A DNA stretch of 40,761 nt from Mycobacteriales bacterium (GTDB lineage Bacteria > Actinomycetota > Actinomycetes > DATLTS01): positions 1 to 40,761 of the forward strand of contig DATLTS010000021.1 in the NCBI GenBank assembly GCA_035533475.1. Reading direction: 5' to 3'. Both the position numbers and the translations under genes were made by a program. Shown one piece after another: positions 11,490-32,881 of this stretch. The notes beneath the pieces were generated by a model, which was not told the origin of the DNA, did no database searches, and was given only the letters and a program-made list of their open reading frames with translations. Within the stretch, counting starts at the first letter, position 1. Each line of letters starts with the position of its first letter.

Positions 11490-11552
11490 CCGAACATCTG
11501 TTCGGACAGCGTAGTAGCGCCCGACGTTCCCCGCCGCGCGACGCGCCGACGG

Positions 11553-12931: not shown

Positions 12932-13845
12932 CAGCCGCGGCCGGCGTAGCGGGCTTCGGCGGGCAGCTCGGACAGGTTGATTCCGACCATCGCCTCGCCG
13001 AGACCACGCGAGACCTTGGCCACGACGTGCGGATCGTCGAACATCGTGGTCGCTTCGACGATCGCCCGGGCCCGCCGGGCAGGATCACCGGATTTGAAGA
13101 TGCCGGACCCGACGAAGACGCCATCGGCCCCCAGTTGCATCATCAGCGCCGCGTCGGCCGGGGTGGCGATTCCGCCCGCGGTGAACAGCACGACCGGAAG
13201 CTTGCCGTTCGCGGCGACCTCCCGGACCAGCTCCAGCGGGGCGCGCAGCTCCTTCGCGGCGGCGTAGAGCTCGTCCGGGTCCAGCCCGGCGAGTCGGCGG
13301 ATCTCGCCGGTGATCGAGCGCATGTGCCGAACCGCCTCGACAACGTTGCCGGTGCCGGCCTCACCCTTGGACCGGATCATGGCGGCGCCCTCGGACAGCC
13401 GCCGCAACGCCTCGCCGAGGTTGGTCGCCCCGCACACGAACGGGACGGTAAAGCGCCACTTGTCGATGTGGTGCGCCTCGTCGGCCGGGGTAAGCACCTC
13501 CGACTCGTCGATGTAGTCGACACCGAGCGCCTGGAGGACCTGCGCCTCCGCGAAGTGACCGATCCGGGCCTTGGCCATGACCGGGATGGTCACCGCCTCG
13601 ACGATGCCCTGGATCATGTCCGGGTCGCTCATCCGGGCGACCCCGCCCTGGGCTCGAATGTCAGCCGGGACGCGCTCCAGAGCCATCACCGCGACCGCCC
13701 CGGCGTCCTCGGCGATCTTCGCCTGCTCGGCGGTGACGACGTCCATGATCACGCCGCCCTTGAGCATTTCGGCCATCCCCCGCTTGACCAGCGCAGTACC
13801 TACAGCGCCGGCGGCGGGGCTTGCGGGAACTTCGGGCTCGGGCAC
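12928..13845 (-). CDS. pdxS: Pyridoxal 5'-phosphate synthase lyase subunit PdxS
   Basis: [18 protein letters not shown]...[13 protein letters not shown]...[11 protein letters not shown] match PdxS. The 482-aa ORF has a spurious N-terminal extension; the start is assigned to GTG 13843-13845, preceded by a GAGGAAGG Shine-Dalgarno. Confidence 0.9.
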
Positions 13846-13870
13846 GGCGACCTTCCTCTCGCCCCCGATC

Positions 13871-14443
13871 CTACCGTCCGGGCGGAGGCAGTGGGCTGTC
13901 GTCGATCTCGAAGTATCCCGGCAACGCGGCCCGTCCGGCCAGCCGGAACAGCCGGGGAATCCGCCGCCGGCGCAGGTTGAGGGTGTCCCGGACGGCGTCG
14001 TTGTGGAATCGGCGGGCCAGCCCGACCTTGAGGCTTGCCGTGGCCAGCTCAGCCGAGGCCTCGAACACCTCGGGGGTCTCCTCCGCCAACGCGTTGAGCC
14101 GGCGGGACAAGGCGTTCTCGGCGGCTTCCCGGTCGGGCTGAAGCCCGTCGACCGCCTGCGCCGCGCGGGCGGCGGCCGCGAGCCGCTCGGCGACGACGAC
14201 CGGCAGCCGCCCGGAGCCCGCCAGCCCCGCGGCGGCGGCGGCCCGCCTGACCAGCTGCGCGTCGAGGGTCGCCGCGGCGGCCTCCAGTCGGGCATGCAGC
14301 CGGTCGATCCGCCCGGCTGTCCACGAAAGGTAGAGACCGAGCAAGCCGATCGCCGCGAGAACACCGATGACCGCACCCACCGGCGCAGGGTAACCGCCGC
14401 CGCGGGCCCGCTGGCCCGCCCGCCCGTACGCTGGGGCCGCCAT
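13871..14443 (-). CDS. LemA-family membrane protein (N-terminal transmembrane anchor); start uncertain
   Basis: A transmembrane helix ([17 protein letters not shown]) followed by ...[28 protein letters not shown], resembling the conserved LemA C-terminal RRxYNDAVRDYN...P...FGF motif. Candidate ATG starts at 14443 or 14455 overlap the divergent pgsA start. Confidence 0.55.
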
Positions 14444-15074
14444 GCTCAGCCACATCCGCCCAGCCCTCGCCCACGTCCTCGACCCGGTTGGGCACCGGCT
14501 GTCGCGGGCCGGTGTCTCGCCGGACGTGGTCACGGTCGTCGGCACGCTCGGCGTGGTGGGGGGGGCTCTCGGCTTCTACCCGCGCGGCAGTTTCACCGTT
14601 GGCTCGTTCGTAATCTCCGCCTTCGTGCTGAGCGATCTCCTCGACGGCGCGATCGCCCGGGCCGGTGGCCGCAGCGGCCCCTGGGGCGCGTTCCTGGACT
14701 CCACCCTCGACCGGTTCGGGGACGCGGCGGTCTTCGGCGGGCTGGTGCTGTGGTTCGCCGGCGGCGGCCACTCCTTCCTGATGGCGGGCGTCACCCTCTA
14801 CGACCTCGCCGCCGCCGCGATCACCTCCTACATCAAGGCTCGTGCGGAAGGGCTCGGCCTTACTTGCAACGTCGGGCTCGTCGAGCGCTCCGAACGGCTG
14901 ATCGCCATCCTCGTCGCCACCGGATTCACCGGCATGCTCGGGCTGCCGGCGCTACAGGTGGTTGTGCTCTGGATCCTGGCCGCCGGGATGACGATCACCA
15001 TCGGACAGCGACTCGTCGAGGTGCACCGGCAGGCGGCCCGCTCGGCTGCCAATGCTCCCGAGCCAGCCCGGTGA
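14442..15074 (+). CDS. pgsA: CDP-alcohol phosphatidyltransferase; phosphatidylinositol synthase PgsA1-like
   Basis: CDP-OH phosphatidyltransferase motif DLLDGAIAR...G...DSTLDRFGD. The length and N-terminus parallel mycobacterial PgsA1. Confidence 0.85.
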
Positions 15075-15979
15075 GCCTGCGCGAGACCGCTGTCGACACC
15101 GGGTTCGGGCTCGGCTGGACAAGCCTGCGCGCGCTCCCCGAATCGGTGGTCTACCGACAGTTCGGCGCGATTGCCGAGCTGACCTATCGCCGGGACGGGC
15201 GCGGCGTGCAACGGCTGCGGTCCAACCTGTCCCGCGTCCTCGGCCCCGACACTCCCCCGGCCCAACTCGACGAGGTCACGCGGGCCGGCGTGCACTCCTA
15301 CCTTCGATACTGGTGCGAGGTTTTCCGGCTGCCGGCGATGAGCCGCGAGACGGTCCTCGACCGGGTGAGCTTCGACGGCAGGGACCGGTTGGAAGCGGCG
15401 CTCACCGCCGGCCGTGGTTTCATCCTCGCCCTGCCGCACAGCGCCAACTGGGACTTGGCGGGCGCCTGGCTGATCCACCTCGGCCATCCGTTCACAACGG
15501 TCGCCGAGCGGTTACGCCCCGAGCAGCTGTTCGATCGCTTCGTCGCGTTCCGCGAGTCGATGGGCATGGAGGTCATCCCGCTCACCGGCGGCGAGCGCGC
15601 GCCCTCGGCGATTCTCGCCGAACGACTCCGCGCGGGCGGCGGGCTCGCGCTGCTGGCTGATCGCGACCTGACGACCACCGGAGTACGTGTTCAACTCTTT
15701 AACGAGCCAGCCCGCATGCCCGGCGGTCCGGTCAGACTCGCGCTGGACACGGGGGCGACCCTGCTCCCGGTGAGCCTCTGGTACGACGGACCGCGGACGA
15801 TGCGTGGCCGGTTCCACGAACCGATCGTCCCCTCCGCCAACGGCGACGACGCGGTCGCGGAGATGACGCAGCAACTGGCCGACGTGTTCGCTGGAGCGAT
15901 CAGCGAGCACCCGGCGGACTGGCACATGCTCCAGCGCGTGTGGGTGGCCGACACCAGCACCCGGACTGGACGGCCCTGA
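15071..15979 (+). CDS. patA: Lipid A biosynthesis (HtrB/LpxL)-family acyltransferase, equivalent to the PIM acyltransferase (mycobacterial PatA-like)
   Basis: HtrB-like fold with the HSANWDL (HX4D) acyltransferase motif. The GTG start overlaps the pgsA TGA (GTGA). The real gene occupies only the C-terminal third of an 802-aa artifactual ORF. Confidence 0.8.
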   Translation: MSLRETAVDTGFGLGWTSLRALPESVVYRQFGAIAELTYRRDGRGVQRLRSNLSRVLGPDTPPAQLDEVTRAGVHSYLRYWCEVFRLPAMSRETVLDRVSFDGRDRLEAALTAGRGFILALPHSANWDLAGAWLIHLGHPFTTVAERLRPEQLFDRFVAFRESMGMEVIPLTGGERAPSAILAERLRAGGGLALLADRDLTTTGVRVQLFNEPARMPGGPVRLALDTGATLLPVSLWYDGPRTMRGRFHEPIVPSANGDDAVAEMTQQLADVFAGAISEHPADWHMLQRVWVADTSTRTGRP

Positions 15980-17191
15980 GTGCGGGTCGGCCTGGTCAGC
16001 CCCTACCCGTGGGACGTGCCGGGCGGGGTGGTCGCGCACATCCGCGACTTGGCCGAGGCGCTCCGCGACCTCGGCCATCACGTGTCGGTCATGTCCCCGG
16101 TCGACGACGAGGACGCGGAGGTCCCCGACTATCTCGTCCGGGCCGGGCGCAGCGTCCCGGTTCCCTACAACGGGTCGGTCTCCAGGCTCATCTTCGGCCC
16201 GGTCTCGGCAACCCGGATGTACCGCTGGCTGCGGGAGGGCGACTTCGACGTGCTGCACGTGCACTCCCCGGAAACGTTCTCCCTGTCGCTGCTCGCGCTG
16301 ATGTCCGCCCGCGGGCCGATCGTCGCCACCTTCCACGCCGCGATGCCCCGGTCGCGGATCCTCTCGCTGCTCCAGACGCCGTTGCAGACCCAGCTGGAGA
16401 AGGTGCAGGGGCGAATAGCGGTGTCACCGGCCGCGCGCAAGCTCATCGTCGAGCATCTCGGCGGTGACGCCGTCATCATTCCCAATGGCGTGCGGGTCGC
16501 CCGCTTCTCCGCTGCCCAACCGCTTCCCGGCTGGCCCGGACCGGGGGGCGCGATCGGGTTCGTCGGGCGCATCGACGAACCACGCAAGGGCCTGGCTGTC
16601 CTGCTCGAGGCATTCGGCCGCCTGCTTGCGGATGCGCCGGGTCTTCGGCTGCTGATCGCCGGCCCGGGCGACACCGACGAGGTCCGCGATCTGGTCCCGG
16701 CCCCGGCTCGGGACAACGTGGTCCTGCTCGGTCAGGTGACCGAGGCCGAGAAGGCCCAGGTGTATGCCAGCGTCGACCTTTTCGTCGCACCCAACACCGG
16801 CGGCGAGAGCTTCGGCATCATCCTGCTCGAGGCGATGGCCACCCGGACCCCGATCCTCGCCAGCGACCTCGACGCGTTCCGGTTGGTCCTGGACGACGGC
16901 CGAGCCGGCCGGCTGGTGCCGGTCGGCGACCCGGCGGCGCTGGCTGCCGCCTGCGGCGAGCTGCTCGACGACCCGGGGGCGCGGGCCTGGTTCGCCGAGG
17001 TGGGCTGGCAACGCGTGCAGGGCTTCGACTGGAGCGTCGTCGCCGCCGCCATCGTGCAAGTGTACGAGACCGTGACCGCCGCCGGCGTCCACGTGCAGCC
17101 CGAGCCGGCCGAGCCGGACACCCTTGCCGGAAGCGGCATACCGGGTGGAGAGTCATCGCCACCGAACCGAGGAGGCGAGCCAGATGGCTGA
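15980..17191 (+). CDS. pimA: GDP-mannose-dependent alpha-mannosyltransferase PimA (GT4 family)
   Basis: MRVGLVSPYPWDVPGGV..HI..LA..L...GH.V.V N-terminus and GT4 C-terminal motifs (ESFGIILLEAMA). Synteny with pgsA and the acyltransferase. Confidence 0.85.
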   Translation: MRVGLVSPYPWDVPGGVVAHIRDLAEALRDLGHHVSVMSPVDDEDAEVPDYLVRAGRSVPVPYNGSVSRLIFGPVSATRMYRWLREGDFDVLHVHSPETFSLSLLALMSARGPIVATFHAAMPRSRILSLLQTPLQTQLEKVQGRIAVSPAARKLIVEHLGGDAVIIPNGVRVARFSAAQPLPGWPGPGGAIGFVGRIDEPRKGLAVLLEAFGRLLADAPGLRLLIAGPGDTDEVRDLVPAPARDNVVLLGQVTEAEKAQVYASVDLFVAPNTGGESFGIILLEAMATRTPILASDLDAFRLVLDDGRAGRLVPVGDPAALAAACGELLDDPGARAWFAEVGWQRVQGFDWSVVAAAIVQVYETVTAAGVHVQPEPAEPDTLAGSGIPGGESSPPNRGGEPDG

Positions 17192-19325
17192 CAAGAGCAC
17201 CCCCGGAGCCGCCGCCGGCAGGGCACCGGCGGCCGAGGCACCGGCGTCGGTCCGCAACGTCGTGCTGGTCGGCCACTCGGGGGCTGGAAAGACGACGCTG
17301 GTCGAGGCCCTCCTCGTCGCCACCGGGACGATCCCCCGGGCCGGTCGCGTCGAGGACGGCACCACGATCAGCGACCACGACGAAGCGGAGATCCGCCAAC
17401 ACCGGTCGGTCTCCCTGGCGGTGGCCCCGGTCGAGCACAACGGCATCAAGATCAATCTTCTGGATGCCCCCGGCTACGCCGACTTCGTCGGCGACCTGCG
17501 GGCCGGCCTCCGAGCGGCCGACGCCGCGCTGTTCGTCGTCTCCGCCGCGGACGGGGTCGACGGGACGACGCAGATGATCTGGGACGAGTGCGCCACCGTC
17601 GGCATGCCGCGGGCGGTCGTCATCACCAAGCTGGACTCCCCGCGGGCGGACTTCGAGGCCATCCTGGCGACCTGCCAGCAACGTTTCGGCGACAACGTGC
17701 TGCCGCTCTACCTGCCGTTGCATGCGGAGGAGGGCGTGGCCGGGCTCATCGGCCTGCTCTCGCGGCGGGTCTTCGACTACTCCTCGGGCAGTCGCGCGGA
17801 CCGGGAGCCGGACCCTGAGCACCTGCCGCTCATCCAGGACGCCCGCAACAGCCTGATCGAGGGGATCATCGCCGAGAGCGAGGACGAATCCCTCATGGAC
17901 CGATACCTCGGTGGCGAGGACATCGAATCCAAGGTGCTCATCGACGACCTGGAGAAGGCCGTCGCGCGGGGCAGCTTCTACCCGGTCCTCGCCTCGGCGG
18001 CCCCCAGCGGCCTCGGCAGCGCCGAGCTGCTCGAGGTACTCGCCAGCGCATTCCCCTCCCCCCTCGAGCACCCACTGCCGACGATCACCAGCCCGGACGG
18101 CGCCCCGGTCGAACCACCGCGCTGCGACCCGGACGGCCCGCTCGTCGCCGAGGTGGTGAAGACGACGACCGACCCGTACGTCGGGCGGATCTCCGTCGTG
18201 CGCGTGTTCTCCGGAACGCTGCGCGCGGATGCGATCGTGCACGTATCCGGCCACGGATTGGCCGACCGCGGACACGAGGACCACGACCTCGACGAGAAGC
18301 TCGGCGCGATCTCCTCGCCACTGGGCAAGACATTGCGTCCAGCCGCGCAGTGCATCGCCGGCGATATCTGCACGATCGCCAAGCTGTCCCGGGCCGAGAC
18401 CGGGGACACCCTTTCCGACAGGGACAACCCGCTGCTCGTAGCCGCCTGGGAGATGCCGGAGCCGCTGCTTCCGGTGGCGATCGAGGCGAAGAGCAAGGCC
18501 GACGAGGACAAGCTTTCGACCGGGCTGTCGCGGATCGTCGCCGAGGAGCCGACCGTGCGGCTGGAACGCAACGCGGAGACCCACCAGCTGGTCTTGTGGT
18601 GCATGGGCGAGGCGCACACGGATGTGCTCATCGACCGCTTGAGGTCGAAGTACGGGGTCGAGGTCGCGCAGGTACCGCTGCGCGTGCCACTGCGGGAGAC
18701 CTTCGCCGCCAAGGCGACCGGGCACGGCCGGCACGTCAAACAGTCCGGCGGCCACGGCCAGTACGCGGTGTGCGACCTCGACGTCGAACCCAACGAGTCC
18801 GGGGCCGGTTTCGAATTCGTCGACAAGGTCTTCGGTGGCGCGGTGCCGAATCAGTTCATCCCGTCGGTCGAGAAGGGCGTCCGGGCCCAGATGGAACGCG
18901 GGGTCGTCGCCGGCTACCCGGTCGTCGACATCAAGGTGACCCTGGTCGACGGCAAGGCACACTCCGTCGACTCCTCGGACATGGCCTTCCAGATGGCCGG
19001 CGGGTTGGCGCTCCGGGATGCGGCCAAGGCAACAACGGTCCACCTGCTCGAGCCCGTTTTGGCGGTGGCGGTGCTCGTTGCAGACGAATATGTCGGTGCG
19101 GCGATGAGCGACCTGTCGTCGCGCCGCGGCCGAGTCACCGGAACCGAGCCGTTGGGCCCGGGACGCACGCTGATCCGGGCTGAGGTGCCGGAGATCGAGG
19201 TGACCCGCTACGCCGTCGACCTGCGGTCGATCTCGCACGGGACGGGCACTTTCACCCGTCACTACTTGCGTTACGAGCCGATGCCGCAACACGTCGCCGC
19301 CAAGGTTCTAGCGGAGAATCCGTAG
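17184..19325 (+). CDS. Elongation factor G-like GTPase (EF-G2 paralog)
   Basis: G-domain HSGAGKTTL...DAPGYADF...TKLD, followed by EF-G domains II-V. The ATG at 17184 has a GAGGAGG Shine-Dalgarno and overlaps the pimA 3' end by 8 nt. Confidence 0.85.
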   Translation: MADKSTPGAAAGRAPAAEAPASVRNVVLVGHSGAGKTTLVEALLVATGTIPRAGRVEDGTTISDHDEAEIRQHRSVSLAVAPVEHNGIKINLLDAPGYADFVGDLRAGLRAADAALFVVSAADGVDGTTQMIWDECATVGMPRAVVITKLDSPRADFEAILATCQQRFGDNVLPLYLPLHAEEGVAGLIGLLSRRVFDYSSGSRADREPDPEHLPLIQDARNSLIEGIIAESEDESLMDRYLGGEDIESKVLIDDLEKAVARGSFYPVLASAAPSGLGSAELLEVLASAFPSPLEHPLPTITSPDGAPVEPPRCDPDGPLVAEVVKTTTDPYVGRISVVRVFSGTLRADAIVHVSGHGLADRGHEDHDLDEKLGAISSPLGKTLRPAAQCIAGDICTIAKLSRAETGDTLSDRDNPLLVAAWEMPEPLLPVAIEAKSKADEDKLSTGLSRIVAEEPTVRLERNAETHQLVLWCMGEAHTDVLIDRLRSKYGVEVAQVPLRVPLRETFAAKATGHGRHVKQSGGHGQYAVCDLDVEPNESGAGFEFVDKVFGGAVPNQFIPSVEKGVRAQMERGVVAGYPVVDIKVTLVDGKAHSVDSSDMAFQMAGGLALRDAAKATTVHLLEPVLAVAVLVADEYVGAAMSDLSSRRGRVTGTEPLGPGRTLIRAEVPEIEVTRYAVDLRSISHGTGTFTRHYLRYEPMPQHVAAKVLAENP

Positions 19326-23746: not shown

Positions 23747-23790
23747 CGGATGGTTCGAACCGGACCGGCCGGCGCGACGAATACCAGATC

Positions 23791-24591
23791 ATGAGCTTCG
23801 ACCTAGCGGCCTATCGGCAAACCGTCCGGCCGGTCCAGGTGGATGACCTCGACTTCGGGGCCTTCCGCGACCGGCCGCTGTCCACCGGCACGTTGCGCTG
23901 CCTGCGCTACATGCACGACGTGGAGTCGCACACCGTTTGCTATCTGCGCGACCTCCTGCTGACGAGCAGCCATCGGGACCCGGAGATCACGACCTTCCTC
24001 ACCATGTGGAACTACGAGGAGTACTGGCACGGCGTCGCCCTCGGCCGGGTGCTCAAGGCGCACGGGGAACCCGCCGAGGCCGAGCGGATCGGACCGATGC
24101 GGGCCCGGCTCGGAACGAAGGACCGCTTCGCGCCGTTCGTGCACGCCCTCGGATCCAGCCTGCTGGGTGAGGACTTCGTCGCGCTGCACATGACCTGGGG
24201 AGCCATCAACGAGTGGTCGACCCAGGCCGGCTACGACCGGCTCGCCGAAATCGAAGGACATCCCGTCCTCACCGAACTTCTCGGCAGGATCGCCCGGCAG
24301 GAGGCGCGGCACATCGCGTTCTACGCCACCCAGGCCCGGGGCCGGTTGGCCCGCTCGGCGAAGGCACAGCGCGGGACCCGCTGGGCGCTCCGCCGGCTCT
24401 GGGCGCCGGTCGGCAGCACCGTAATGCCTGCCGTAGAAACGCGTTTCCTGCTCGACTACCTGATGGGGGGATCTGCTGGGCGCCGCTGTGCCCAGCGCGT
24501 CGAGCGCAACATCGACCGCCTCCCCGGCCTCGACGGGTTACAGCTCGTAACCCGCGCCCTGGACAAGTACCCAACGTCCGTCGCGGCCTGA
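23791..24591 (+). CDS. Ferritin-like diiron oxygenase (AurF-like / diiron carboxylate family), 266 aa
   Basis: Repeated carboxylate/ExxH ligand motifs (DVESH, EEYWH, QEARH) and a DLDFGAF N-terminal motif resembling the AurF-family DIDWD. The start is 44 nt after the dehydratase stop, same strand. Confidence 0.55.
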   Translation: MSFDLAAYRQTVRPVQVDDLDFGAFRDRPLSTGTLRCLRYMHDVESHTVCYLRDLLLTSSHRDPEITTFLTMWNYEEYWHGVALGRVLKAHGEPAEAERIGPMRARLGTKDRFAPFVHALGSSLLGEDFVALHMTWGAINEWSTQAGYDRLAEIEGHPVLTELLGRIARQEARHIAFYATQARGRLARSAKAQRGTRWALRRLWAPVGSTVMPAVETRFLLDYLMGGSAGRRCAQRVERNIDRLPGLDGLQLVTRALDKYPTSVAA

Positions 24592-24644: not shown

Positions 24645-25046
24645 ATGTCCCACATGACCAGGTCGTGGATCGCCCATCCCCCCGACCTCCTGGTGGCCCT
24701 GCTGCTCGACGCCGCATCGGGCCCTCCGGTGATCCTGCACCCCGACGGCGTGACCCGGCTGGACTGTCCCCGGACCGACGGTGTCCAGCTGGCCGGCGTC
24801 TCGTCCGAGGACGGTCACGACCTGTCATGGGCCTGGGGCTTCGTCGCCGCCGAAGTGAGCGATCCGTGGGTGCGGTTCCAACGCTGGCACGGCCTGAGCC
24901 GTCGCCGGGTTCCGGTTCGCCGGCTCTCGGCGAGCGTTTGGACGGCCCAGGTTCCTGGCCGGTGGTCCGCGGTCTCGTTGATCCGGTCCGCGGCCGAGGT
25001 GGCGCCGGCCGGGCTGGGTGCCGGACGGGTCGCGCTGACTCGCTGA
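24645..25046 (+). CDS. Hypothetical protein, 133 aa
   Basis: Strong GC3 periodicity with no obvious transmembrane segment. Third gene of the putative dehydratase-oxygenase operon. Confidence 0.4.
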   Translation: MSHMTRSWIAHPPDLLVALLLDAASGPPVILHPDGVTRLDCPRTDGVQLAGVSSEDGHDLSWAWGFVAAEVSDPWVRFQRWHGLSRRRVPVRRLSASVWTAQVPGRWSAVSLIRSAAEVAPAGLGAGRVALTR

Positions 25047-25097: not shown

Positions 25098-25853
25098 TCA
25101 GGCGCTGATGGCCACCGGGGTCCGGGTCGTGCGGGCCGGGACCCCGGGCCCGTTCTCCTCGGTGATGGCAAACGTGCCCGCCAGCCCGGTCACCGACCCG
25201 ACATCGACCGTCGTCAGTCCCGCTCCGGTGACCCGGAAGCCGCCGACCGGCTGCAAGGCCCCGTCCGCGATGCGCCAGAGCACGTAGATGCTGGTCCCCG
25301 TCGTCGGACTGAGCCGGTCGGCGACCAAGGTCACGCTGGTCCCCCGCAGCAAGGCGGCCGCAGCGGGCTGCGCCGAGCCGGCGATGTGCAGCACGACCGT
25401 GTGGCAACCGGTCTGCTCTAGACAGCCGAGGACCTGCGAGCTTGCGAGCAGCGAAGGATTGCTCGACGACCCGCCGCCCAGGGTGAGCGGCAGGCTGATG
25501 GCCGCCGCTACCGCTGCGCCGGCTGCCGCCGCGAGCAGCGAGTTGCGGTAACCGCCCCGACGGAAGCCGATCTGGCGGACCAGGGCCGAACCCGGCGCCA
25601 CCACAGCCCGGGCATCACGTCCGATCTCCTCATCGATCGCAGCCCACAGTGACTTCGGGGGAAGGGCCGGCTCGGCGACCGTCGCCAGCTCGGTCACGGT
25701 CGCCTCGAAGCCGGCAACGGTCTGCTGGCACTGCGGGCAACCGAGCAGGTGCCGGAGAAAGGCGTTCTCCTCGGCCGGCTCGAGCGCGTGCAGCGCGGAA
25801 CCCGCTGCCAGTTCGTCCCACTCCTGATGGTGGCGAGATGCTGGACCAGTCAT
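25098..25853 (-). CDS. Zinc-finger anti-sigma factor (ZAS; RskA-like) with transmembrane and extracytoplasmic domains
   Basis: HLLGCPQCQ (HxxxCxxC) ZAS motif, a central transmembrane segment ([16 protein letters not shown]), and a C-terminal anti-sigma-K-like domain. The start overlaps the stop of the sigma gene (ATGA). Confidence 0.8.
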   Translation of the reverse strand: MTGPASRHHQEWDELAAGSALHALEPAEENAFLRHLLGCPQCQQTVAGFEATVTELATVAEPALPPKSLWAAIDEEIGRDARAVVAPGSALVRQIGFRRGGYRNSLLAAAAGAAVAAAISLPLTLGGGSSSNPSLLASSQVLGCLEQTGCHTVVLHIAGSAQPAAAALLRGTSVTLVADRLSPTTGTSIYVLWRIADGALQPVGGFRVTGAGLTTVDVGSVTGLAGTFAITEENGPGVPARTTRTPVAISA

Positions 25854-26485
25854 CGGAGTTCACCTCGCAGAAAATCGAAGGAGTCCGGGGCGTCCCCGGC
25901 TAGTGCATCACGAAGCCGGCGCAGACCGGCAAACGTGCGGGTCTTCACCGTTCCCAACGGCACATCTATCAGTTGCGCGATCTCTTGCTGCGTGTAGCCG
26001 CCGAAGTAGGCAAGGAGCAACGGGGTCCGCTGCGCTTCGGGAAGGGTCTGCAGCGCCGCTCGTATCCGGTTCGCCCGCAGGCTGTCGTCCGCCAATTCGG
26101 CGACGTCAGAGCCGCCCGCGGGCTCCTCGTACAGCAGGTCGAAGTTGTCCCGCCGGCGCCGGTGGACGTCCTCACGTCTGACCGCGTCGACACTCTTGTG
26201 GTGGGTGATCGAGAGTAGCCAGGTCTTCACGCTGGCCTTGGCCTGGTCGTACCCGGAGGACCGCCGCCAAAGCGCGACGAAAACCTCCTGTACCACGTCC
26301 TCGGCCAGCCCCTCGTCCCCCACGATGCGCCGGGCCAGGCCGTAGCAGGCGGCGCCGTAGCGCCGGTATATCTCCCCCAGCGCATCCCGGTCGCCTCCGG
26401 TGACCGCGTCGATCAGGAGTGCGTCCGGGCGGTCGCCGACGTCGGCGACCGGCTGGTGACGCGAAAGCATCTGGACCGACCTCAC
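25850..26485 (-). CDS. ECF (group IV) RNA polymerase sigma-70 factor, SigK-like
   Basis: Sigma-2 region (VQEVFVALWRRSSGYD...KTWLLSITHHKSVDAVRRE) and sigma-4 HTH (YTQQEIAQLIDVPLGTVKTR). Confidence 0.88.
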   Translation of the reverse strand: MRSVQMLSRHQPVADVGDRPDALLIDAVTGGDRDALGEIYRRYGAACYGLARRIVGDEGLAEDVVQEVFVALWRRSSGYDQAKASVKTWLLSITHHKSVDAVRREDVHRRRRDNFDLLYEEPAGGSDVAELADDSLRANRIRAALQTLPEAQRTPLLLAYFGGYTQQEIAQLIDVPLGTVKTRTFAGLRRLRDALAGDAPDSFDFLRGELR

Positions 26486-26702
26486 AACCTTGGTTCGGAC
26501 ACCGGGCCGGTTCGGTTCATTCGGGCCTGGTTACCGAAAGTCTGCCCGGCCCGGGCGGGACCAAGCGCCCGAGGGACGGTCGCCTGGCGGCCGCCCATGG
26601 CCAGTTCCTGGGGCGGCTTCGGTGCGCTTGCCGGGGAGTGGCCGGGTCACCCGGCCCGTGACGATAAATGAACCGCGAGCCGCCCCCGGGCGAAAGACCC
26701 GC
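26486..26702. promoter_or_regulatory. Divergent intergenic region between the ECF sigma gene and the membrane/cupredoxin operon; expected to hold the auto-regulated ECF promoter and the target promoter
   Basis: 217-bp non-coding gap between divergently oriented genes. GAACC-like elements are present, but I could not assign a confident -35/-10. Confidence 0.3.
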
Positions 26703-27659
26703 ATGCGAATCACCCGGCGAAGTATGCAGATCCTGCTCGGGATCCTGTGGCTGGTCGACGGCGCCCTGCAACTTCAGCCGTTCATGTTCGGGAAAGGCTT
26801 CGCCACCCAGGTCATCGACCCGGCGGCGGCCGGTCAGCCCACCTTGGTGCGGTTGCTGGTCACCGGCTCGGGTCACCTGATCGGCCTGCATCCCGTCCTC
26901 GCGGACACCTTCTTCGCGACCGTGCAACTGGCCCTCGGAGCCGGCCTTCTGCTCCGGCGGACGGCTCGCCCCGCGCTCGCCGCGTCGATTATCTGGGCAC
27001 TGGGGATCTGGGCCTTCGGCGAGGGCTTCGGCGGAGTCTTCGGTGGCCACACCAGCCTGCTGCTGGGTGCCCCCGGCGCCGCACTGATCTATGCGGTGCT
27101 CGCGGCGGCGGCTTGGCCACAACGCGACGGCGACTCCGCTCCAGCGAGCTGGCTGCCGGCCGCCTGGTCTGGCATCTTCGCCCTCGGAGCACTGCTGTGG
27201 GCGCTCCCTTGGCAGTTCAACGGACGCTCCATCGCCGGGCAACTCACCTCGAATCTGGCCAGCCTGCCGGGGCCCGTGGCCTCGGTGGTGCTCTCCTTGG
27301 CAACATTCACCTCCGCCCACGGGCACCTCGTCGCGGCCGTGCTCGTCGCGCTCGGGATTGCGGCGGCGGTCCTCGCCCTACGGCCTGGCCGCTGCCGGAC
27401 TGTCGCGGCGACGCTGGGCGCCACCCTCGCTCTGGCCGCGTGGGCTTCTAGCCAGGCATTCGGCGGGATCTCGACCGGACAGGCCACCGATCCGAACACC
27501 GGCCCGTTGCTCGTCCTGCTCGCCGCGGCACTCGCGGCGACCAACGCCCGGCGACCTGTCCCGGCCACCGCCCGGTATCCCGTCGCGGTCACCTCGGGCC
27601 GTCAGCAGCCGTCTCCCAGCTGGGCAACGGCACCGGCACTCTTCGAAAGGGCGGGATGA
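26703..27659 (+). CDS. Polytopic integral membrane protein (about 9 transmembrane helices), unknown function
   Basis: 319 aa from ATG 26703 (MRITRRSMQILLGILWLVDGAL..), with repeated hydrophobic helices and Trp-rich interfacial residues. The 389-aa ORF call includes a spurious upstream extension. Confidence 0.6.
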   Translation: MRITRRSMQILLGILWLVDGALQLQPFMFGKGFATQVIDPAAAGQPTLVRLLVTGSGHLIGLHPVLADTFFATVQLALGAGLLLRRTARPALAASIIWALGIWAFGEGFGGVFGGHTSLLLGAPGAALIYAVLAAAAWPQRDGDSAPASWLPAAWSGIFALGALLWALPWQFNGRSIAGQLTSNLASLPGPVASVVLSLATFTSAHGHLVAAVLVALGIAAAVLALRPGRCRTVAATLGATLALAAWASSQAFGGISTGQATDPNTGPLLVLLAAALAATNARRPVPATARYPVAVTSGRQQPSPSWATAPALFERAG

Positions 27660-28135
27660 TCATGGATCGGCTCAGGTCACTGGACGTCAATTCCGCCCTG
27701 CAGATCCTGCTCCGAGTCGTCGTCGCGGCAGCACTTGCGGTCGACGCCTTCGAGCACGCCAAGCTGGCGCCGCTCTATGACGGGATCCGAGCCTCGGTGA
27801 GCCAGGGCAATTTGTTCCGGGCGGAGGCGGGAGTTGCGGCCGCCGTGGCGCTGCTCGTCCTGGTGGTCGGGCGTCGCGTCGGTTACTCCGCGGCCTTCCT
27901 CGTCGCGGCGAGCGCGCTTGGAGCCGTGCTGCTCTACCGATACGCGGACGTCGGCCGGCTCGGCCCGCTCCCCAACATGTACGACCCCGGCTGGTTCCCG
28001 ACCGGCAAGCCGGTCTCCGCAATCGCGGAGGCCGTGGCCTCAGCCGCCGCCCTGGTCGGGCTGGCCGACGCCCAACTCAGACGCCGGCGGACACCTGCCC
28101 GTTCGGTCGCACGCCAACAGGATGGAACACCATGA
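27656..28135 (+). CDS. Small integral membrane protein (about 4 transmembrane helices), unknown function
   Basis: 159 aa. The start overlaps the upstream stop (ATGA) and the stop overlaps the cupredoxin start (ATGA). Confidence 0.55.
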   Translation: MIMDRLRSLDVNSALQILLRVVVAAALAVDAFEHAKLAPLYDGIRASVSQGNLFRAEAGVAAAVALLVLVVGRRVGYSAAFLVAASALGAVLLYRYADVGRLGPLPNMYDPGWFPTGKPVSAIAEAVASAAALVGLADAQLRRRRTPARSVARQQDGTP

Positions 28136-28521
28136 AACTACGTCTCGCGTCCCTGGCCGTAGCGCTCGCGGCGGCCGCCACTGCCTGCGGCGGGAGCTCC
28201 GGCGGATCTCACGTGGCCCCCCCGGCCGCGGCCGGGGCCGGCGGACAGCACGTGACCATCGACGGCAACTCGATGTTCCGGTTCAGCCCGATGTCGATCG
28301 CCGTGCATACCGGAACGGTCACGATCACGCTGACAGATCAGGGCGCCTACCCGCACAACATCGACATCCCGTCGCTGAAGGTGACGTCAGGTTCGGTCTC
28401 GGGCAATCCCGGTGGCACCTCAACCAGCTTCACCGTGACATTCCCCCACGCCGGCACGTACCCGTTCAAGTGCGACTACCACAGCAGCGCCGGCATGGTC
28501 GGTGACTTCGTCGTCTCCTGA
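28132..28521 (+). CDS. Blue-copper (type-1 cupredoxin, plastocyanin/amicyanin-like) lipoprotein
   Basis: Lipobox LAAAATAC-G. Type-1 copper ligands are present: His (YPHNIDI) and C-x2-H-x4-M (FKCDYHSSAGMVGDFVV). Confidence 0.8.
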   Translation: MKLRLASLAVALAAAATACGGSSGGSHVAPPAAAGAGGQHVTIDGNSMFRFSPMSIAVHTGTVTITLTDQGAYPHNIDIPSLKVTSGSVSGNPGGTSTSFTVTFPHAGTYPFKCDYHSSAGMVGDFVVS

Positions 28522-28651
28522 TCCAGGAGTCGAAGATTTCCCTGCCTGGCTGTGATTTGGCCCGATCCCAAAGACTTTCGAGGGTGAGGCGAACCGCCTC
28601 GGCCTTCGGTCCGAAGACCTTCCCGAGTCCCTTCCCGATTGGAGAAAGCAA

Positions 28652-29905
28652 ATGCACACATCGCTAATGGTTCGCGGCGGAGTTGGGGTGGCCAGCCTGG
28701 CCCTCGCCCTGGCCGCCTGCGGCGGCGGCAACACCGCCGCCCCGACATCCACCACCACCACGGGGTCGACGCCGCCGCCGGCATCCGCCACCACGGCGTC
28801 CGACGTCACGGCGACGCCGACCGCCACCCTCGAAGCCGGCCTCGACCAACTGCTCCGAGAGCATGTCGACCTCACCGCCAACGTCGTCGAGACCGCCATC
28901 ACGAAGGGCCCGTCGTCGACGGACACGAAGAACGCCCTGGCCGCGCTCGACGCCAACACGGTCGGCCTCGGGCAGGCCATCGGCAGCGTCTACGGGCCGG
29001 CGGCCCAAACCGCATTCATCAAGCTCTGGCGGGCACACATCGGCTTCTTCGTCAACTACACGCTCGGCCTGGCCAGCAACAACACGTCCATGGTGAATAC
29101 CGCGAACCAGGACCTCGCCGGCTACATCACGCAGTTCTCGGCCTTCGTGAACAGCGCGACGCAGCTCCCGGCGTCGGCGGTTGCCGCTGACCTACAGGGT
29201 CACGTGACCACCCTGGAAACGGCGATCAAGGCGATCGTGACCAAGAGCCCCGAGGCCGGCAAGGACATCGAGATGGCGGCCATGCACATGGACGGCACCG
29301 CGCAGGTTCTCGCCCAGGGCATCGCGACCTCGAAGAACATCTCCGGCAGCGCCACCGGCGCGGGCGCCGCGCTTCGTGAAGGCTTGACCGGCCTGCTGAT
29401 CCAGCACGTCGCGGCAACCACCTTCGTCGTCCAGACCGCCGTGGCCAACGGCGGCAACCTCAAGGCGCCCGAGGTGCAGGGTGCGATCTCGGCCCTTACC
29501 GATAACACCAACCAGCTCGGCGCGGCGCTCGGCAGCGTCTACGGTCCCGCTGCGCAGGCGGAGTTCCTCAAGTTGTGGAACGCCCACATCGGGTTCTTCG
29601 TCAAATACACGCTCGGCAAGGCGACGAAGAACGCCAGCCAGGTGACGCAGGCGCAGAGCGATCTGTCCGGCTACATCTCGCAGTTCTCCGCGTTCGTCAG
29701 CTCTGCGACGAAGCTGCCGGCGTCCGCGGTTGCCGCGGACCTGCAGGGTCACGTGCAGACCCTCGAGGCCACGATCAACGACATCGTCGGGGACAGCCCG
29801 TCGACGTCGGCGGACCTCGCCATGGCCGAATCGCACATGGCCGGGACCGGAGCGGTGCTCGCCCAGGGCATCGCCGCTGCGAACCCGTCGAAGTTCACCA
29901 ACTGA
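28652..29905 (+). CDS. Lipoprotein with an internally duplicated domain of about 175 aa (conserved His/Met), unknown family
   Basis: Lipobox LALAAC-GG followed by a Thr/Pro-rich linker and two homologous halves. Conserved blocks are LGxAxGSVYGPAAQ, KLWxAHIGFFVxYTLG, GYIxQFSAFVxSATxLPASAVAADLQGHVxTLE and MAxxHMxGTxxVLAQGIA. GGAG Shine-Dalgarno. Confidence 0.8.
   Translation: MHTSLMVRGGVGVASLALALAACGGGNTAAPTSTTTTGSTPPPASATTASDVTATPTATLEAGLDQLLREHVDLTANVVETAITKGPSSTDTKNALAALDANTVGLGQAIGSVYGPAAQTAFIKLWRAHIGFFVNYTLGLASNNTSMVNTANQDLAGYITQFSAFVNSATQLPASAVAADLQGHVTTLETAIKAIVTKSPEAGKDIEMAAMHMDGTAQVLAQGIATSKNISGSATGAGAALREGLTGLLIQHVAATTFVVQTAVANGGNLKAPEVQGAISALTDNTNQLGAALGSVYGPAAQAEFLKLWNAHIGFFVKYTLGKATKNASQVTQAQSDLSGYISQFSAFVSSATKLPASAVAADLQGHVQTLEATINDIVGDSPSTSADLAMAESHMAGTGAVLAQGIAAANPSKFTN
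28823..29887 (+). repeat. Intragenic tandem duplication (two domain copies of about 525 nt each) inside the lipoprotein gene
   Basis: Amino acids about 58-232 align with about 238-412 at roughly half identity, with four His conserved per copy. Confidence 0.8.
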
Positions 29906-29919
29906 GCGAACGGGATCCC

Positions 29920-29961
29920 GGCGGATGGCCGGGGGTGGACAACCACCCCCGGCCATCCGCC
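29920..29961. terminator. Perfect 19-bp stem / 4-nt loop hairpin between convergent genes; probable bidirectional intrinsic terminator without a U-tail (actinobacterial I-shaped type)
   Basis: ggcggatggccgggggtgg-acaa-ccacccccggccatccgcc, starting 15 nt after the lipoprotein stop. Confidence 0.6.
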
Positions 29962-30105
29962 GTTCTCGTCACTGCCTCCACGCGCGCACCGTTGGGTCCG
30001 TGTGCGGGCGCAGGTCGGTCGGCAATGCGCCGAGGCTGGCCGGCCCCGGCTGCGGGCTCCTTGGCTCGCAGTTCCGGTCATGGGGCTCGACCGGTTGCCC
30101 CGTCG

Positions 30106-30576
30106 TCAGTAGGAGCCGAAACGACGCCGGCGGATGCACAGTCCGGCTCCGACACCCAGCGGGACCCCGGCGGCCAGCGCAAGTCCAAAGGCGAGTACGC
30201 CGTCGAACGCCGCAGCGGCGACCTGCTCGCCATGGTTGGGGGCAGGCCCAACGAGTACGCGATGCTGGGGGCTGAGCATGAGTTCGACCTGGGTGCCCAC
30301 CGGGGCACAGATCGAATCGACGGGCACGGTCCCGGTCACGCCGACCACTTTCACCCGCACAGAGCAACCGAAACCCCCATCACCGGGCCGGGCCGAGGCG
30401 ACCACTGCGGAGGTCGGCCGCGCCATGGCGAGATCGCGCTCGCGAGCAAGACCCACGACCGTCCAGGTCACCGCGATGGCAAACGCCATGGCGACAACTG
30501 CGAAAGCGATGATGGGCTCCGCGATCCGGCGGGCATGCCTCCGCCCTTCCAGGAAATCCGGAAAGCCCACCACCAC
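30106..30576 (-). CDS. Hypothetical membrane protein (N- and C-terminal hydrophobic segments), 156 aa
   Basis: High GC3 in frame. No family recognised. Confidence 0.4.
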   Translation of the reverse strand: MVVGFPDFLEGRRHARRIAEPIIAFAVVAMAFAIAVTWTVVGLARERDLAMARPTSAVVASARPGDGGFGCSVRVKVVGVTGTVPVDSICAPVGTQVELMLSPQHRVLVGPAPNHGEQVAAAAFDGVLAFGLALAAGVPLGVGAGLCIRRRRFGSY

Positions 30577-30860: not shown

Positions 30861-31490
30861 CTAGCGGTTGCCGGGATCTACGTCCGGTGTCGCCTGTTCG
30901 AAGCGTTGCGGATGCGCCGAGTGCAGGATCATGCCGCGGGTGACGATCCTCGTGCCGTCGCCGACCAGGACGAGTTCGGCGAGTTCGCCGACGCTTAGCC
31001 CGGCTGCGAGATGGTCGGCGATACGGATCTCCGCGATGCGCAGCCGGATCGAACGCTGGTCCTCGCTCGAGCCGGTCCAGCTCGCCACGGGACCCTCAGC
31101 CATCTCGAATTCCTCGCCGAGCCGCAGATCGCCGGACAATGCGCGCCCGCGGATCGCGATCGCGTACGTCGTGCCCGACGACGCGCTCGCGGGGACCGGC
31201 ATTGACTCCACGGAGAACGAGCCCCGTGGCAGACCGAGCGGGTCGTGCCTGCGCCTGGCTGGACGCACCGCCGAACCGACGAAACGCGGGTCCGCGGCCG
31301 GCCCCTGCCATGCCGGCGCCGTGCCGACCTTTGCGTCGGCTGCCGTCCAGCCGGGGTAGGGAGCGGGCCAGTTGGGAGCCGGAGGCAAGGACAGCGAACC
31401 CCGCTCGAGAACGGGCTCCGAACAGTTCCGCAAGTAGAAGGAAGCAATCGCCCCCTTGGCGGTCAGGTCGACGAGTCCGGCCAGGACCAC
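30861..31490 (-). CDS. Hypothetical protein, 209 aa; the C-terminal half may be a beta-barrel (faint MOSC-like pattern). Unknown
   Basis: ORF with coding-like composition immediately downstream (6-nt gap) of the membrane protein 31496-32248. Confidence 0.4.
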   Translation of the reverse strand: MVLAGLVDLTAKGAIASFYLRNCSEPVLERGSLSLPPAPNWPAPYPGWTAADAKVGTAPAWQGPAADPRFVGSAVRPARRRHDPLGLPRGSFSVESMPVPASASSGTTYAIAIRGRALSGDLRLGEEFEMAEGPVASWTGSSEDQRSIRLRIAEIRIADHLAAGLSVGELAELVLVGDGTRIVTRGMILHSAHPQRFEQATPDVDPGNR

Positions 31491-31495
31491 AAGCG

Positions 31496-32248
31496 CTACC
31501 AGGGTGCTACCAGTGAGCGCACTGCTCGAATGAGCCGCACGAGCGCCTGCAATGCCAGCGGCGGCACCAGAACGTACCCGGCGTCGGCGGGCCAGTGCCG
31601 GCGCAACATGCGCAGCCCGTCGCGCAACGCGGTCACCGCCGAGCCCGTGCTGTAAGCGAGAGCGGGAGTGACGAAGGTCAACATCAGGTCAAGGACGACC
31701 GCCGACACGGTTCCGGCCGTGATTAGTCGGGCATTGCCGTGCACCGGCCGGGCCAGCAGGTCCACCACGAGGAAGAACGGCACCTCGATCAGTAGCGCAA
31801 GGGCCCCGAGTCGCAGGAATCGCCCGATGTAGGCCCAGCTGTCCACCCAGACCTGGGCGGGGCCCGTCGACGCGCCCCGCCAAATCCGCAGATACCACAA
31901 CCGGACCGCACCGAAGTACCCCAGCTGGAACACGCCGACCCCGAACGACAGCTCGCTCAAACCGAGCAAGACGCCGGCGTGATGACCGCAAGATGTCGCC
32001 GGAGCCACGCAGTCGTGCGTCATCGACGCGGCCGAGGCCCGGTACAGTCCGCTGGCTGCCGCAACCGCCGCGGTCACCAGCGGAAGGAAAGGGTGCCGCC
32101 GCCAGGAGAGCAGTGCCCGCTGCAAATCTCCGACGAACTCTGCCACGGGCCCTCCAGGGCTGCGTTCGACAAGCTCGATGCCGTTTCGCCGCAGACCACG
32201 AAACTCCTGCCCGTAGCAGGTGCGGATCGTTCGCGCGCCGGTCCCCAC
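31496..32248 (-). CDS. Hypothetical polytopic membrane protein, 250 aa
   Basis: Multiple hydrophobic helices (LPLVTAAVAAASGLY, LGALALLIEVPFFLVVDLL, VSAVVLDLMLTFVTPALAY). Not recognised. Confidence 0.45.
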   Translation of the reverse strand: MGTGARTIRTCYGQEFRGLRRNGIELVERSPGGPVAEFVGDLQRALLSWRRHPFLPLVTAAVAAASGLYRASAASMTHDCVAPATSCGHHAGVLLGLSELSFGVGVFQLGYFGAVRLWYLRIWRGASTGPAQVWVDSWAYIGRFLRLGALALLIEVPFFLVVDLLARPVHGNARLITAGTVSAVVLDLMLTFVTPALAYSTGSAVTALRDGLRMLRRHWPADAGYVLVPPLALQALVRLIRAVRSLVAPW

Positions 32249-32356
32249 CTTGGCGCACGCACGGTTGGGAGGCCAGGACGTCGGCCGTCAATCAGCGTCG
32301 GGCGGGTGGCTGGCGCCGGGCTGACGCGGACCCGGCGGCGCGAGAGGATCAACCTC

Positions 32357-32881
32357 GTGGCAGAAACCGCTTTCCCGAGCCCGACGATCCCGATCAGCGA
32401 CGAGCGGCAGGTCCTGCTCGGCTACCTGGACTTCTTCCGCGAGGTGGCATTGGCAAAGGTCGCCGGCATGGCGCCGAAGGATCAGACGGCCAGCCCGTTG
32501 GCTTCGGGCTGGACCCCGCTGGAGCTGCTCAACCATCTTCGTCATGTGGAGCGGCGCTGGCTGGAGTGGGGCTTCTGCGGGGTCCCCATGTCGGATCCGT
32601 GGGCCGATCACCGAGACCACCGCTGGCACACGGATGAGGACTTCGCTGAAATCTCCGCACAGCTGGAGCGGCAAGCGGTGGTGAGCCGGCGAGTGGTCGA
32701 GGACCACGGTCTGGACGAGGTGGGGCAGCCGGGCGAGCGCTGGGATGGTGACCCGCCGGCGACGCTTCGGCGGGTACTCCTGCACCTCGTGCAGGAATAC
32801 GCTCGCCACTGCGGACACCTCGACATCGTCCGCGAGATGGTCGACGGCGCGATCGGCGAAGACACCGGGCCGCTGCAATAG
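32357..32881 (+). CDS. DinB/YfiT-like (DinB_2 / DUF664) four-helix-bundle metalloprotein
   Basis: His triad pattern (LNHLRHVERRW ... LHLVQEYARHCGHLDIVRE). GTG start at 32357 within a longer artifactual ORF. Confidence 0.7.
   Translation: MAETAFPSPTIPISDERQVLLGYLDFFREVALAKVAGMAPKDQTASPLASGWTPLELLNHLRHVERRWLEWGFCGVPMSDPWADHRDHRWHTDEDFAEISAQLERQAVVSRRVVEDHGLDEVGQPGERWDGDPPATLRRVLLHLVQEYARHCGHLDIVREMVDGAIGEDTGPLQ

Follow-up and report, generated by a model that had tools for sequence, protein, structure and literature searches.

The stretch of DNA analysed here (the window, 40,761 nucleotides) is a 40.8-kb contig of about 70% G+C from a metagenome bin deposited at NCBI as "Mycobacteriales bacterium". 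It carries a module of six genes: an extracytoplasmic function (ECF) sigma factor, its anti-sigma factor, two membrane proteins that we call MP1 and MP2, a cupredoxin, and a lipoprotein built of two homologous halves that we call dupLpp (Table 1). The six open reading frames (ORFs) named in the original prediction, which was made from the letters of the DNA alone, all lie where it had placed them. MP1, MP2 and the cupredoxin form a plus-strand operon joined by ATGA overlaps, and the anti-sigma gene lies immediately downstream of the sigma gene with its start overlapping the sigma stop in the same way; all three junctions (27656, 28132 and 25853) were confirmed. A hairpin with a stem of 19 bp had been noticed at the end of the locus; the hairpin exists, with a measured stem of 20 bp and without a U tract, and it is probably a terminator of the kind that lacks one. 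In the NCBI record, MP2 is the hypothetical protein VNG13_04465 and dupLpp the hypothetical protein VNG13_04475.

Table 1. Coordinates of the module, its predicted promoters and related features in the window
Feature	Positions	Strand	Description
Anti-sigma factor, RskA-like	25098-25853	minus	cytoplasmic HxxxCxxC domain, one membrane helix, extracytoplasmic RskA_C domain
ECF sigma factor, SigK-like	25850-26485	minus	Sigma70_r2 and Sigma70_r4 domains; GTG start
MP1	26703-27659	plus	polytopic membrane protein, about 8 transmembrane helices, unnamed family; ATG at 26703
MP2	27656-28135	plus	membrane protein with 4 transmembrane helices, unnamed family
Cupredoxin, plastocyanin-type, probable lipoprotein	28132-28521	plus	complete type-1 copper site
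dupLpp	28652-29905	plus	lipoprotein, two homologous six-helix domains
Hairpin 3' of dupLpp	29919-29962	plus	perfect 20-bp GC-rich stem, -57.8 kcal/mol, z -8.1
Predicted promoter of the sigma/anti-sigma operon	26494-26518	minus	GAACC-N16-CGAA, ends 8 nt before the GTG start
Predicted promoter of the MP1-MP2-cupredoxin operon	26670-26694	plus	TGAACCG-N14-GCGAA, ends 8 nt before the ATG at 26703
Predicted promoter of dupLpp	28591-28615	plus	GAACC-N16-CGAA, 36 nt upstream of the ATG, then a GGAGAA ribosome-binding site
Fourth motif site	23757-23781	plus	GAACC-N15-CGAA; the ATG (23791) of a 266-aa ferritin-like/di-iron-like protein follows after 9 nt
Tentative extra regulon member	23757-24591	plus	266-aa ferritin-like/di-iron-like protein with the fourth motif upstream
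Other pattern matches	5969-5994, 14733-14756	minus	within long ORFs (by eye from the ORF lists)

The sigma factor had been described as SigK-like, and this description holds. With its Sigma70_r2 and Sigma70_r4 domains (PF04542, 7e-18; PF08281, 2e-15), no region 1 or region 3, and a score of 96 bits against TIGR02937 (cut-off 42.9), it belongs to the ECF factors (sigma-70 group 4). The best NCBIfam model is SigK (PRK09646) at 157.4 bits, under the cut-off of 226 bits, and the closest sigma factor in PDB is Mycobacterium tuberculosis SigK (4nqw_A, E 1e-28). Besides this sub-threshold score, the two differ in that M. tuberculosis SigK has a Cys pair forming a redox-sensitive disulfide (PMC7826278), which is absent from the window sigma factor because its translation holds a single Cys.

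The anti-sigma factor gave weak Pfam matches to RskA_C (9.9e-6; 26.3 bits, cut-off 29.4), RskA_N (0.003) and zf-HC2, and matched NF052375 at 1.3e-25, under the cut-off of that model; PF10099 is carried by its orthologues in other loci. The HxxxCxxC zinc finger, a putative zinc-associated anti-sigma (ZAS) motif already read from the sequence, is H34-x3-C38-x2-C41, and it is kept in all orthologues with an intact N-terminus (22 aligned; the L096 protein is truncated before the motif). The same alignment of 22 orthologues revealed in the actinobacterial proteins a conserved C-x5/6-C just outside the membrane, at the start of the RskA_C domain. Neither HxxxCxxC nor C-x5/6-C is conserved in the Bacillota or Chloroflexota counterparts. 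In one long-read bin (L081, 7498-9665) the anti-sigma gene is frameshifted and runs into dupLpp. A public protein of 554 aa (P0132) was considered as an RskA_C-dupLpp fusion and rejected, as its translation consists of a disrupted anti-sigma factor and intergenic read-through, with the signal peptide of dupLpp intact; this "RskA_C" protein is probably a frameshift or assembly artefact or a pseudogene.

An ECF-type promoter had been expected in the gap between the divergent operons. A two-block motif search of the regions upstream of dupLpp orthologues yielded GAACC-N16-CGAA in 23 of 55 distinct sequences, compared with at most 5 in shuffled sets; the consensus is T-GAACC-G ... G-CGAA-C, and the spacer is 16 nt in 46 of 54 sites. 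The expectation was right as to place, as the motif stands in the gap and faces both directions, and wrong as to sequence, which is TGAACC-N16-CGAAC and not GGAAC-N16-17-CGTT. With a spacer of 15 to 17 nt, the pattern occurs six times in the window against 1.05 expected, and none of 100 shuffles reached six. The two matches that fall inside long ORFs were considered as promoters and are regarded as chance occurrences for that reason.

The stretches of up to 150 nt before module genes make up 27 kb of the related loci (about 968 kb, both strands counted) and hold 54 of the 70 motif sites, an enrichment of 117-fold (binomial p 2e-69). Among distinct loci, the motif was found before dupLpp in 25 of 57, mostly about 40 nt from the start, and before MP1 in 9 of 12; for MP2 as the first gene of the operon the count is 5 of 13, and for sigma it is 6 of 29, at a distance of 8-9 nt in every case. 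No site was found before the anti-sigma gene (0/24), which fits its co-transcription with sigma. The motif is still present before the dupLpp gene of L170, which has no sigma gene nearby, and TGATCC-N16-CGAAT stands upstream of the Aureibacillus dupLpp. Where the sigma factor is more distant (L008, L016, L022 and L025), no such site precedes MP1 or the di-iron-like gene, and the motif is therefore specific to the clade of the window sigma factor. These counts come from a pattern that was discovered and tested on overlapping sets of loci, in which gene starts were assigned automatically; the window shuffles and the absence before anti-sigma genes serve as internal controls, and the L170 and Aureibacillus sites as partly independent checks.

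The placement of the motif predicts positive autoregulation, and two or three target promoters beyond that of the sigma factor itself. From the 8-nt spacing between promoter and start codon, the transcripts of the sigma and MP1 operons are probably leaderless or carry a very short leader. Judged by its sequence, the module is very probably one sigma-controlled unit.

The conserved neighbourhood on which the original prediction depended was found. A census based on hidden Markov models covered the 13 dupLpp loci whose flanks reach at least 2.5 kb on each side. Within 4 kb of dupLpp it recorded a cupredoxin in 11 of them, sigma and anti-sigma in 10 each, and MP2 and MP1 in 5 each. Scanning 83 loci with a dupLpp relative by tblastn gave 32 cupredoxins, 32 sigma factors, 29 anti-sigma factors, 13 MP2 and 12 MP1, which are lower bounds because many contigs are short. 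At least six gene orders occur among the related loci: MP1-MP2-cupredoxin-sigma-anti-sigma-dupLpp; MP1 divergent from cupredoxin-sigma-anti-sigma-dupLpp; anti-sigma-sigma divergent from dupLpp-cupredoxin; sigma-anti-sigma-dupLpp-cupredoxin; dupLpp-sigma-anti-sigma; and MP2 divergent from dupLpp-cupredoxin. The order in the window is a further variant. From the census and these orders, the conserved core consists of dupLpp, the cupredoxin and the sigma/anti-sigma pair, with MP1 and MP2 as frequent accessories. Remote dupLpp relatives (35-40% identity) adjoin cupredoxins in L152 and L119, and the arrangement sigma-RskA_C-dupLpp recurs in one Bacillota locus (Aureibacillus halotolerans, L167) and one Chloroflexota locus (a Caldilineaceae bin, L168), where dupLpp is fused to a cupredoxin.

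In the Chloroflexota locus, Ferritin_2 genes flank the dupLpp-cupredoxin fusion, and a gene resembling nitrous-oxide reductase (nos_propeller and weak COX2; 601-2643, minus strand) is divergent from the sigma-RskA-Ferritin_2-dupLpp/cupredoxin cluster. One hint from this neighbourhood is that the fused cupredoxin may work for a copper enzyme in this bin.

By sequence, the cupredoxin is an ordinary member of PF00127 (39.7 bits, cut-off 21.2; 6.6e-10), and it also matches PF13473 (38.8 bits, cut-off 27; 1e-9). The complete type-1 copper site claimed for it, a His followed by Cys-x2-His-x4-Met, is borne out: the ligands H75 (in YPHN), C114, H117 and M122 align in register with those of plastocyanin and are at least 95% conserved in 31 aligned orthologues, among which the divergent L122 protein needs gaps in the C-terminal loop. 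A lipobox, AAATAC-GG, was read by eye. Plastocyanin/amicyanin-type cupredoxins and the copper-resistance cupredoxin CopI share with this protein the Pfam families PF00127 and PF13473, the His-Cys-His-Met site and the extracytoplasmic location. The window family differs from them in being lipid-anchored or fused to MP2, in having dupLpp and MP1 as partners, and in belonging to no NCBIfam equivalog (plastocyanin, 41.5 bits against a cut-off of 87.85; CopI, 27.8 against 280, E 1.9e-6).

The internal duplication of dupLpp was readily reproduced (halves 59% identical, E 2e-65), as were the four conserved His residues and the His-Met pair proposed for each half. Across 50 members, down to 31% identity, H71, H129 and H184 and their counterparts H252, H312 and H367 are 100% invariant, H212-M213 and H395-M396 are 90-94% conserved, and W126, Y136 and Y158 are invariant together with their second-half equivalents. 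The lipobox is LALAAC-GGG (read by eye), and its Cys23 is present in 86% of the members. In the structural model (pLDDT, the predicted local distance difference test, 83), a disordered linker leads into twelve helices, of which each half has six. Model and sequence together place each invariant His in the middle of a separate helix, on its hydrophobic face, and this predicted cluster would be typical of a buried metal or cofactor site.

All 392 close homologues of dupLpp are without annotation. A profile search of 1.84 billion representatives returned 1,628 clusters (at 50% identity) with E up to 1e-3, from Actinomycetota, Bacillota and Chloroflexota, with one-, two- and four-domain forms. An alignment across phyla, with two dupLpp-cupredoxin fusions and the two Bacillota proteins among its sequences, shows the His triad of the first domain to be invariant. 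The wall-associated domains SLH or Cu_amine_oxidN1 occur in some members from Bacillota, which supports an extracytoplasmic location of dupLpp. Fusion of dupLpp domains to a C-terminal cupredoxin was seen in three separate clusters (P0361, P0410 and P0419).

No relative of dupLpp was found in PDB by sequence or fold, the profile search giving a match to the signal peptide only, and no Pfam family matched, DUF305 included. A relation to the His-triad bundle of DinB and mycothiol S-transferase (MST) proteins was considered and set aside (hhalign probability 0.2, a comparison of low power made with a two-sequence MST/DinB alignment). The statement that MP1, MP2 and dupLpp fall outside named families holds: none of the three belongs to a Pfam or NCBIfam family, and none matches CopC/CopD, PCuAC or fasciclin; some MP1 homologues have PCuAC, in each case as an additional domain fused to them. 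In three loci, a Bac_luciferase monooxygenase gene lies within about 1.1 kb of a distant dupLpp relative that has no sigma gene nearby, on the opposite strand (L130 9196-10194, L132 5480-6478 and L169 4730-5668); it is the nearest neighbour in L132 and L169, and an F420-oxidoreductase-like gene intervenes in L130.

MP2 has 594 homologues, including proteins from cultured Streptomyces and Kitasatospora. His34, Asp30, Tyr41/Asp42 and Met108/Glu110/Trp113 are invariant and lie in two predicted outer loops. Apart from the fused cupredoxin, no Pfam family was found in 25 members; the DUF1772/anthrone-oxygenase label of one UniRef entry was discarded on this ground, and a relationship to MP1 was also rejected (hhalign probability 0.2). 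Fusions of an N-terminal MP2 to a cupredoxin, with one extra membrane helix between them, occur in at least 7 protein clusters and in 7 loci. Together with the positive-inside rule, this extra helix would place the C-termini of MP1 and MP2 in the cytoplasm, and the conserved loop motifs of both proteins would face the outer side, where the lipoproteins sit.

For MP1, about nine transmembrane helices had been counted; the AlphaFold model (pLDDT 86.7, predicted template modelling score 0.82) and positive-inside reasoning favour about eight. The protein has 238 homologues, and at least 576 genome loci carry it, in Acidimicrobiia, Thermoleophilia and Actinomycetes, with Kribbella and Streptacidiphilus among the genera. 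Gln, Asp, Glu and Trp residues are invariant, as are Gly/Pro motifs; the motifs GEGxGG, GAPGA and TDPNTGPL lie in predicted outer loops, and no His or Cys is conserved in the alignment. The window protein has no Pfam match to DoxX, DoxX_2 or MauE at E up to 1 and no NCBIfam family, and the MP1 profile found no match among PDB sequences. One of 20 homologues matches Pfam DoxX weakly (E 0.011), and in the model part of MP1 may resemble the DoxX-like four-helix fold, which would make it at best a remote relative at the level of structure. DoxX/DoxD-like proteins include the DoxX of the M. tuberculosis DoxX-SseA-SodA complex, the DoxD subunit of thiosulfate:quinone oxidoreductase and the eukaryotic NACHO/TMEM35A. 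Compared with these, MP1 is about twice as long, has extra helices and outer-loop motifs of its own, and lacks a Pfam DoxX match.

The genomic context of MP1 points to copper. Fusions of MP1 to PCuAC were found in at least six clusters (P0034, P0039, P0055, P0065, P0073 and P0076) and in loci L041 and L057, and at least one of a P1B ATPase/HMA, Caa3_CtaG or SCO1 gene lies within 8 kb of MP1 in 30 of 80 loci. The P1B ATPases near MP1 in other genomes are of the Cu type, with HMA domains. In Acidimicrobiaceae, MP1 is fused through Met-rich linkers to a domain of about 300 aa without a Pfam match.

These long forms of about 655 aa (L051 7932-9908 and L054 7911-9914) carry the additional domain, which is probably extracytoplasmic, at the C-terminus, and their linkers are Met-rich stretches such as MAGMTGMSASGS and NMSMGGAHVIMNMNG. 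Upstream of the long forms in Acidimicrobiaceae a block of genes recurs (L032, L039, L054, L059, L061, L063, L071, L074, L075 and L080), which encodes a BlaI/CopY-type repressor whose N-terminus is rich in Cys, a BlaR-like M48 peptidase, Caa3_CtaG and SCO1; genes for VKOR and for a thioredoxin-like DUF929 protein are often close by. The block has the look of a regulatory arrangement of its own for the MP1 family, one that may respond to copper. In L082, the genes directly downstream of the module (11179-17248) begin with a second MP1 paralogue of 436 aa, followed by an amine oxidase, DUF1365, two cyclopropane-fatty-acid-synthase-like genes and DUF1295. We take the run from amine oxidase to DUF1295 to be the gene set that stands beside mycobacterial sigK and in the RpoE-ChrR regulon.

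The shared motif, the recurring neighbourhoods, the gene fusions and the copper context of MP1 support the reading that the original prediction had offered, a sigma-controlled extracytoplasmic copper/redox system. In its full form, in which an ECF sigma factor controls an extracytoplasmic copper/redox module with a membrane-tethered blue copper protein at its centre, we give this reading about an even chance of being correct. The extracytoplasmic RskA_C domain would sense an envelope signal and release the sigma factor, which would then fire its own operon, the MP1-MP2-cupredoxin operon, dupLpp and possibly a fourth target. On the outer side of the cytoplasmic membrane, the products would come together around the type-1 blue copper protein, which would owe its attachment to its lipid anchor and to MP2; such a physical assembly around the cupredoxin is likely, and a role linked to copper is, on balance, also probable.

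Type-1 cupredoxins are electron carriers. This property, the recurrent fusion and the buried His cluster favour dupLpp as the redox partner of the cupredoxin, in which a buried site of three His (with a further His/Met) per domain would hold the metal or cofactor centre for the chemistry. MP1 would be the link between the assembly and the membrane, with the quinone pool as the most plausible contact, a weak suggestion that draws on the DoxX match of a single homologue (E 0.011). The reading that we prefer would be a short electron-transfer chain running between MP1, the cupredoxin and dupLpp for copper-related redox work in the envelope, such as cycling between Cu(II) and Cu(I) for detoxification or for loading cuproenzymes, or the removal of oxidants. 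That the purpose is copper-related redox work or delivery is suggested by the PCuAC, Sco, CtaG and ATPase context of MP1. This specific chain is put forward tentatively, and we think it somewhat doubtful. The most far-reaching version seems unlikely, although worth stating: dupLpp would represent a new class of extracytoplasmic His-ligated metalloproteins, a dedicated redox partner of type-1 cupredoxins and the primary output of SigK/RskA-type systems, and together with a DoxX-like MP1 it would form a quinone-linked branch of electron transfer, unrecognised so far, on the outside of the membrane.

Several observations weigh against a copper/redox module of this kind. MP1 and MP2 are found in only about 40% of dupLpp loci, and dupLpp relatives occur without a nearby sigma factor or cupredoxin in L130, L132, L166, L169 and L170. 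Most of the 80 MP1 loci are different, unrelated contexts, with the full window-like gene set in one (L021), and the MP2 contexts in Streptomyces and Kitasatospora are unrelated to the module. Many of the related loci come from kindred metagenome bins, so that the counts overstate phylogenetic independence. The whole case rests on sequence, synteny and predicted structure.

The main rival, which we hold to be possible and still rather unlikely, is a non-catalytic system for trafficking or buffering copper. Here dupLpp would be a His/Met buffer or chaperone like the helical, periplasmic CopM/DUF305 proteins, the cupredoxin would be CopI-like, and a CopD-like MP1 would move copper across the membrane or to Sco/PCuAC for oxidase assembly, with the sigma factor answering either an excess of copper or a demand for it. 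Operons for copper delivery that combine PCuAC, Sco and a CopD-like protein are known from Bradyrhizobium (pcuABCDE), Streptomyces (sco-ecuC) and Bacillus (ycnJ), and MP1, fused to PCuAC or adjoining SCO1 and CtaG genes, holds the genomic place of the CopD-like protein. Its adjacency to Cu-type ATPase and HMA genes, the Met-rich linkers of the long MP1 forms and the His/Met conservation of dupLpp also fit trafficking. However, MP1 has no similarity to CopC/CopD and lacks the conserved His, Cys and Met clusters expected of a copper channel, and the window itself has no PCuAC, Sco or CtaG gene. The weak CopI match of the cupredoxin (1.9e-6) amounts to 28 bits against a cut-off of 280, whereas its type-1 electron-transfer site is canonical and near-invariant. 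Likewise, dupLpp has a few buried invariant His per domain and not a His/Met-rich surface, and there is no Pfam signal for DUF305, CopC or CopD.

A second rival takes the genes as a general regulon for envelope or oxidative stress, in which dupLpp would be a ligand-binding signalling partner of RskA_C, the copper protein one redox-active output among others, and copper homeostasis not what the system is for. The sigma/RskA_C-dupLpp pairing is the most widely conserved one, and no cupredoxin was called in the 13.6-kb Bacillota stretch; the output role of dupLpp is nevertheless indicated by its own predicted sigma-dependent promoter, and it is fused to cupredoxins and not to anti-sigma domains, the single apparent RskA_C-dupLpp fusion being the frameshift artefact described above. 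Redox sensitivity of M. tuberculosis SigK-RskA is reported in PMC7826278 and PMC8103513, which cite Shukla 2014, and would agree with the ZAS motif and the extracytoplasmic Cys pair of the actinobacterial clade. These Cys features are not kept in the Bacillota and Chloroflexota anti-sigma factors, however, and the single Cys of the window sigma factor leaves no SigK disulfide pair. Mycothiol S-transferase genes nearby in the window and in L152 could also be counted in its favour. Overall, we regard this explanation as improbable.

That the genes are neighbours by chance or local synteny, forming no functional unit, is strongly disfavoured and hardly credible: MP1 and MP2 do occur in many unrelated contexts and many loci are from kindred bins, but the same genes are shuffled into at least six orders, share a promoter motif (p about 2e-69), are joined in three independent kinds of fusion, and the sigma/RskA-dupLpp pairing recurs in two further phyla.

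Among known systems, the regulatory pair of the module resembles M. tuberculosis SigK-RskA (ECF19). Apart from being the nearest sigma factor by structure and model, that system has the same overlapping, co-transcribed gene pair and the same anti-sigma layout of N-terminal domain, single transmembrane helix and C-terminal RskA_C. SigK is autoregulated in M. tuberculosis, and autoregulation is predicted for the window system. CnrYXH of Cupriavidus and CorE of Myxococcus are metal-responsive ECF systems, in which an ECF sigma factor also stands over envelope metal-handling genes with an extracytoplasmic sensing step, as would be the case for the window module. The latter differs from them in its sigma group, in having an RskA-like anti-sigma factor instead of CnrY/CnrX or a Cys-rich sigma extension, and in its outputs. 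Both systems are also mentioned in PMC7826278. The loci regulated by SigK encode fasciclin-type proteins, mpt70/mpt83 (PMC4105308); unlike these, and as had been remarked from the sequence, the predicted targets here are the cupredoxin, dupLpp, MP1 and MP2.

The fourth motif site adds a tentative member to the regulon. The 266-aa protein behind it carries EEYWH and QEARH motifs and a weak FA_desaturase_2 match (0.0022). Its homologues lie a few kb from MP1 and an ECF sigma gene in L008 and L016, but without the motif. The genes flanking the module are housekeeping genes, among them those for threonyl-tRNA synthetase, a HIT protein, methionine aminopeptidase, SsgA and urocanase, which places the module in the core chromosome. 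Four flanking ORFs with high third-position G+C (24645-25046, plus strand; 30106-30576, 30861-31490 and 31496-32248, minus strand) have no Pfam family and no counterpart in any of the related loci. A mycothiol S-transferase gene (MST/DinB_2; 32306-32881, plus strand) lies 2.4 kb downstream of the module, and in L152 such a gene (5980-6477) stands directly upstream of the cupredoxin-dupLpp pair. These neighbours may be a coincidence or a hint of thiol/redox stress.

In the literature, we found no paper describing this combination of genes, within a search that did not cover the supplement of the ECF reclassification paper, which possibly lists the context, and none linking a cupredoxin with an ECF/anti-sigma pair, or DoxX with a cupredoxin or PCuAC. 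An ECF-controlled envelope system for metal or redox work is thus of a known kind, and what is new are the three uncharacterised families MP1, MP2 and dupLpp.

To summarise, SigK/RskA-type systems are widespread, and their signals and outputs are poorly understood outside mycobacteria. The locus supplies a promoter motif that is well defined and a small regulon found again in many uncultured actinomycetes, similar arrangements being present in two further phyla, and it provides a testable copper/redox context for three unannotated protein families. Experiments are feasible because there are cultured carriers: Aureibacillus halotolerans for sigma-RskA-dupLpp, and Streptacidiphilus and Kribbella for MP1. 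Placed as it is beside Sco, CtaG, PCuAC and copper ATPases, MP1 could be a missing membrane component of copper delivery to oxidases in actinobacteria, and in dupLpp there is a promising candidate for a metal centre or a cupredoxin partner of a new kind.

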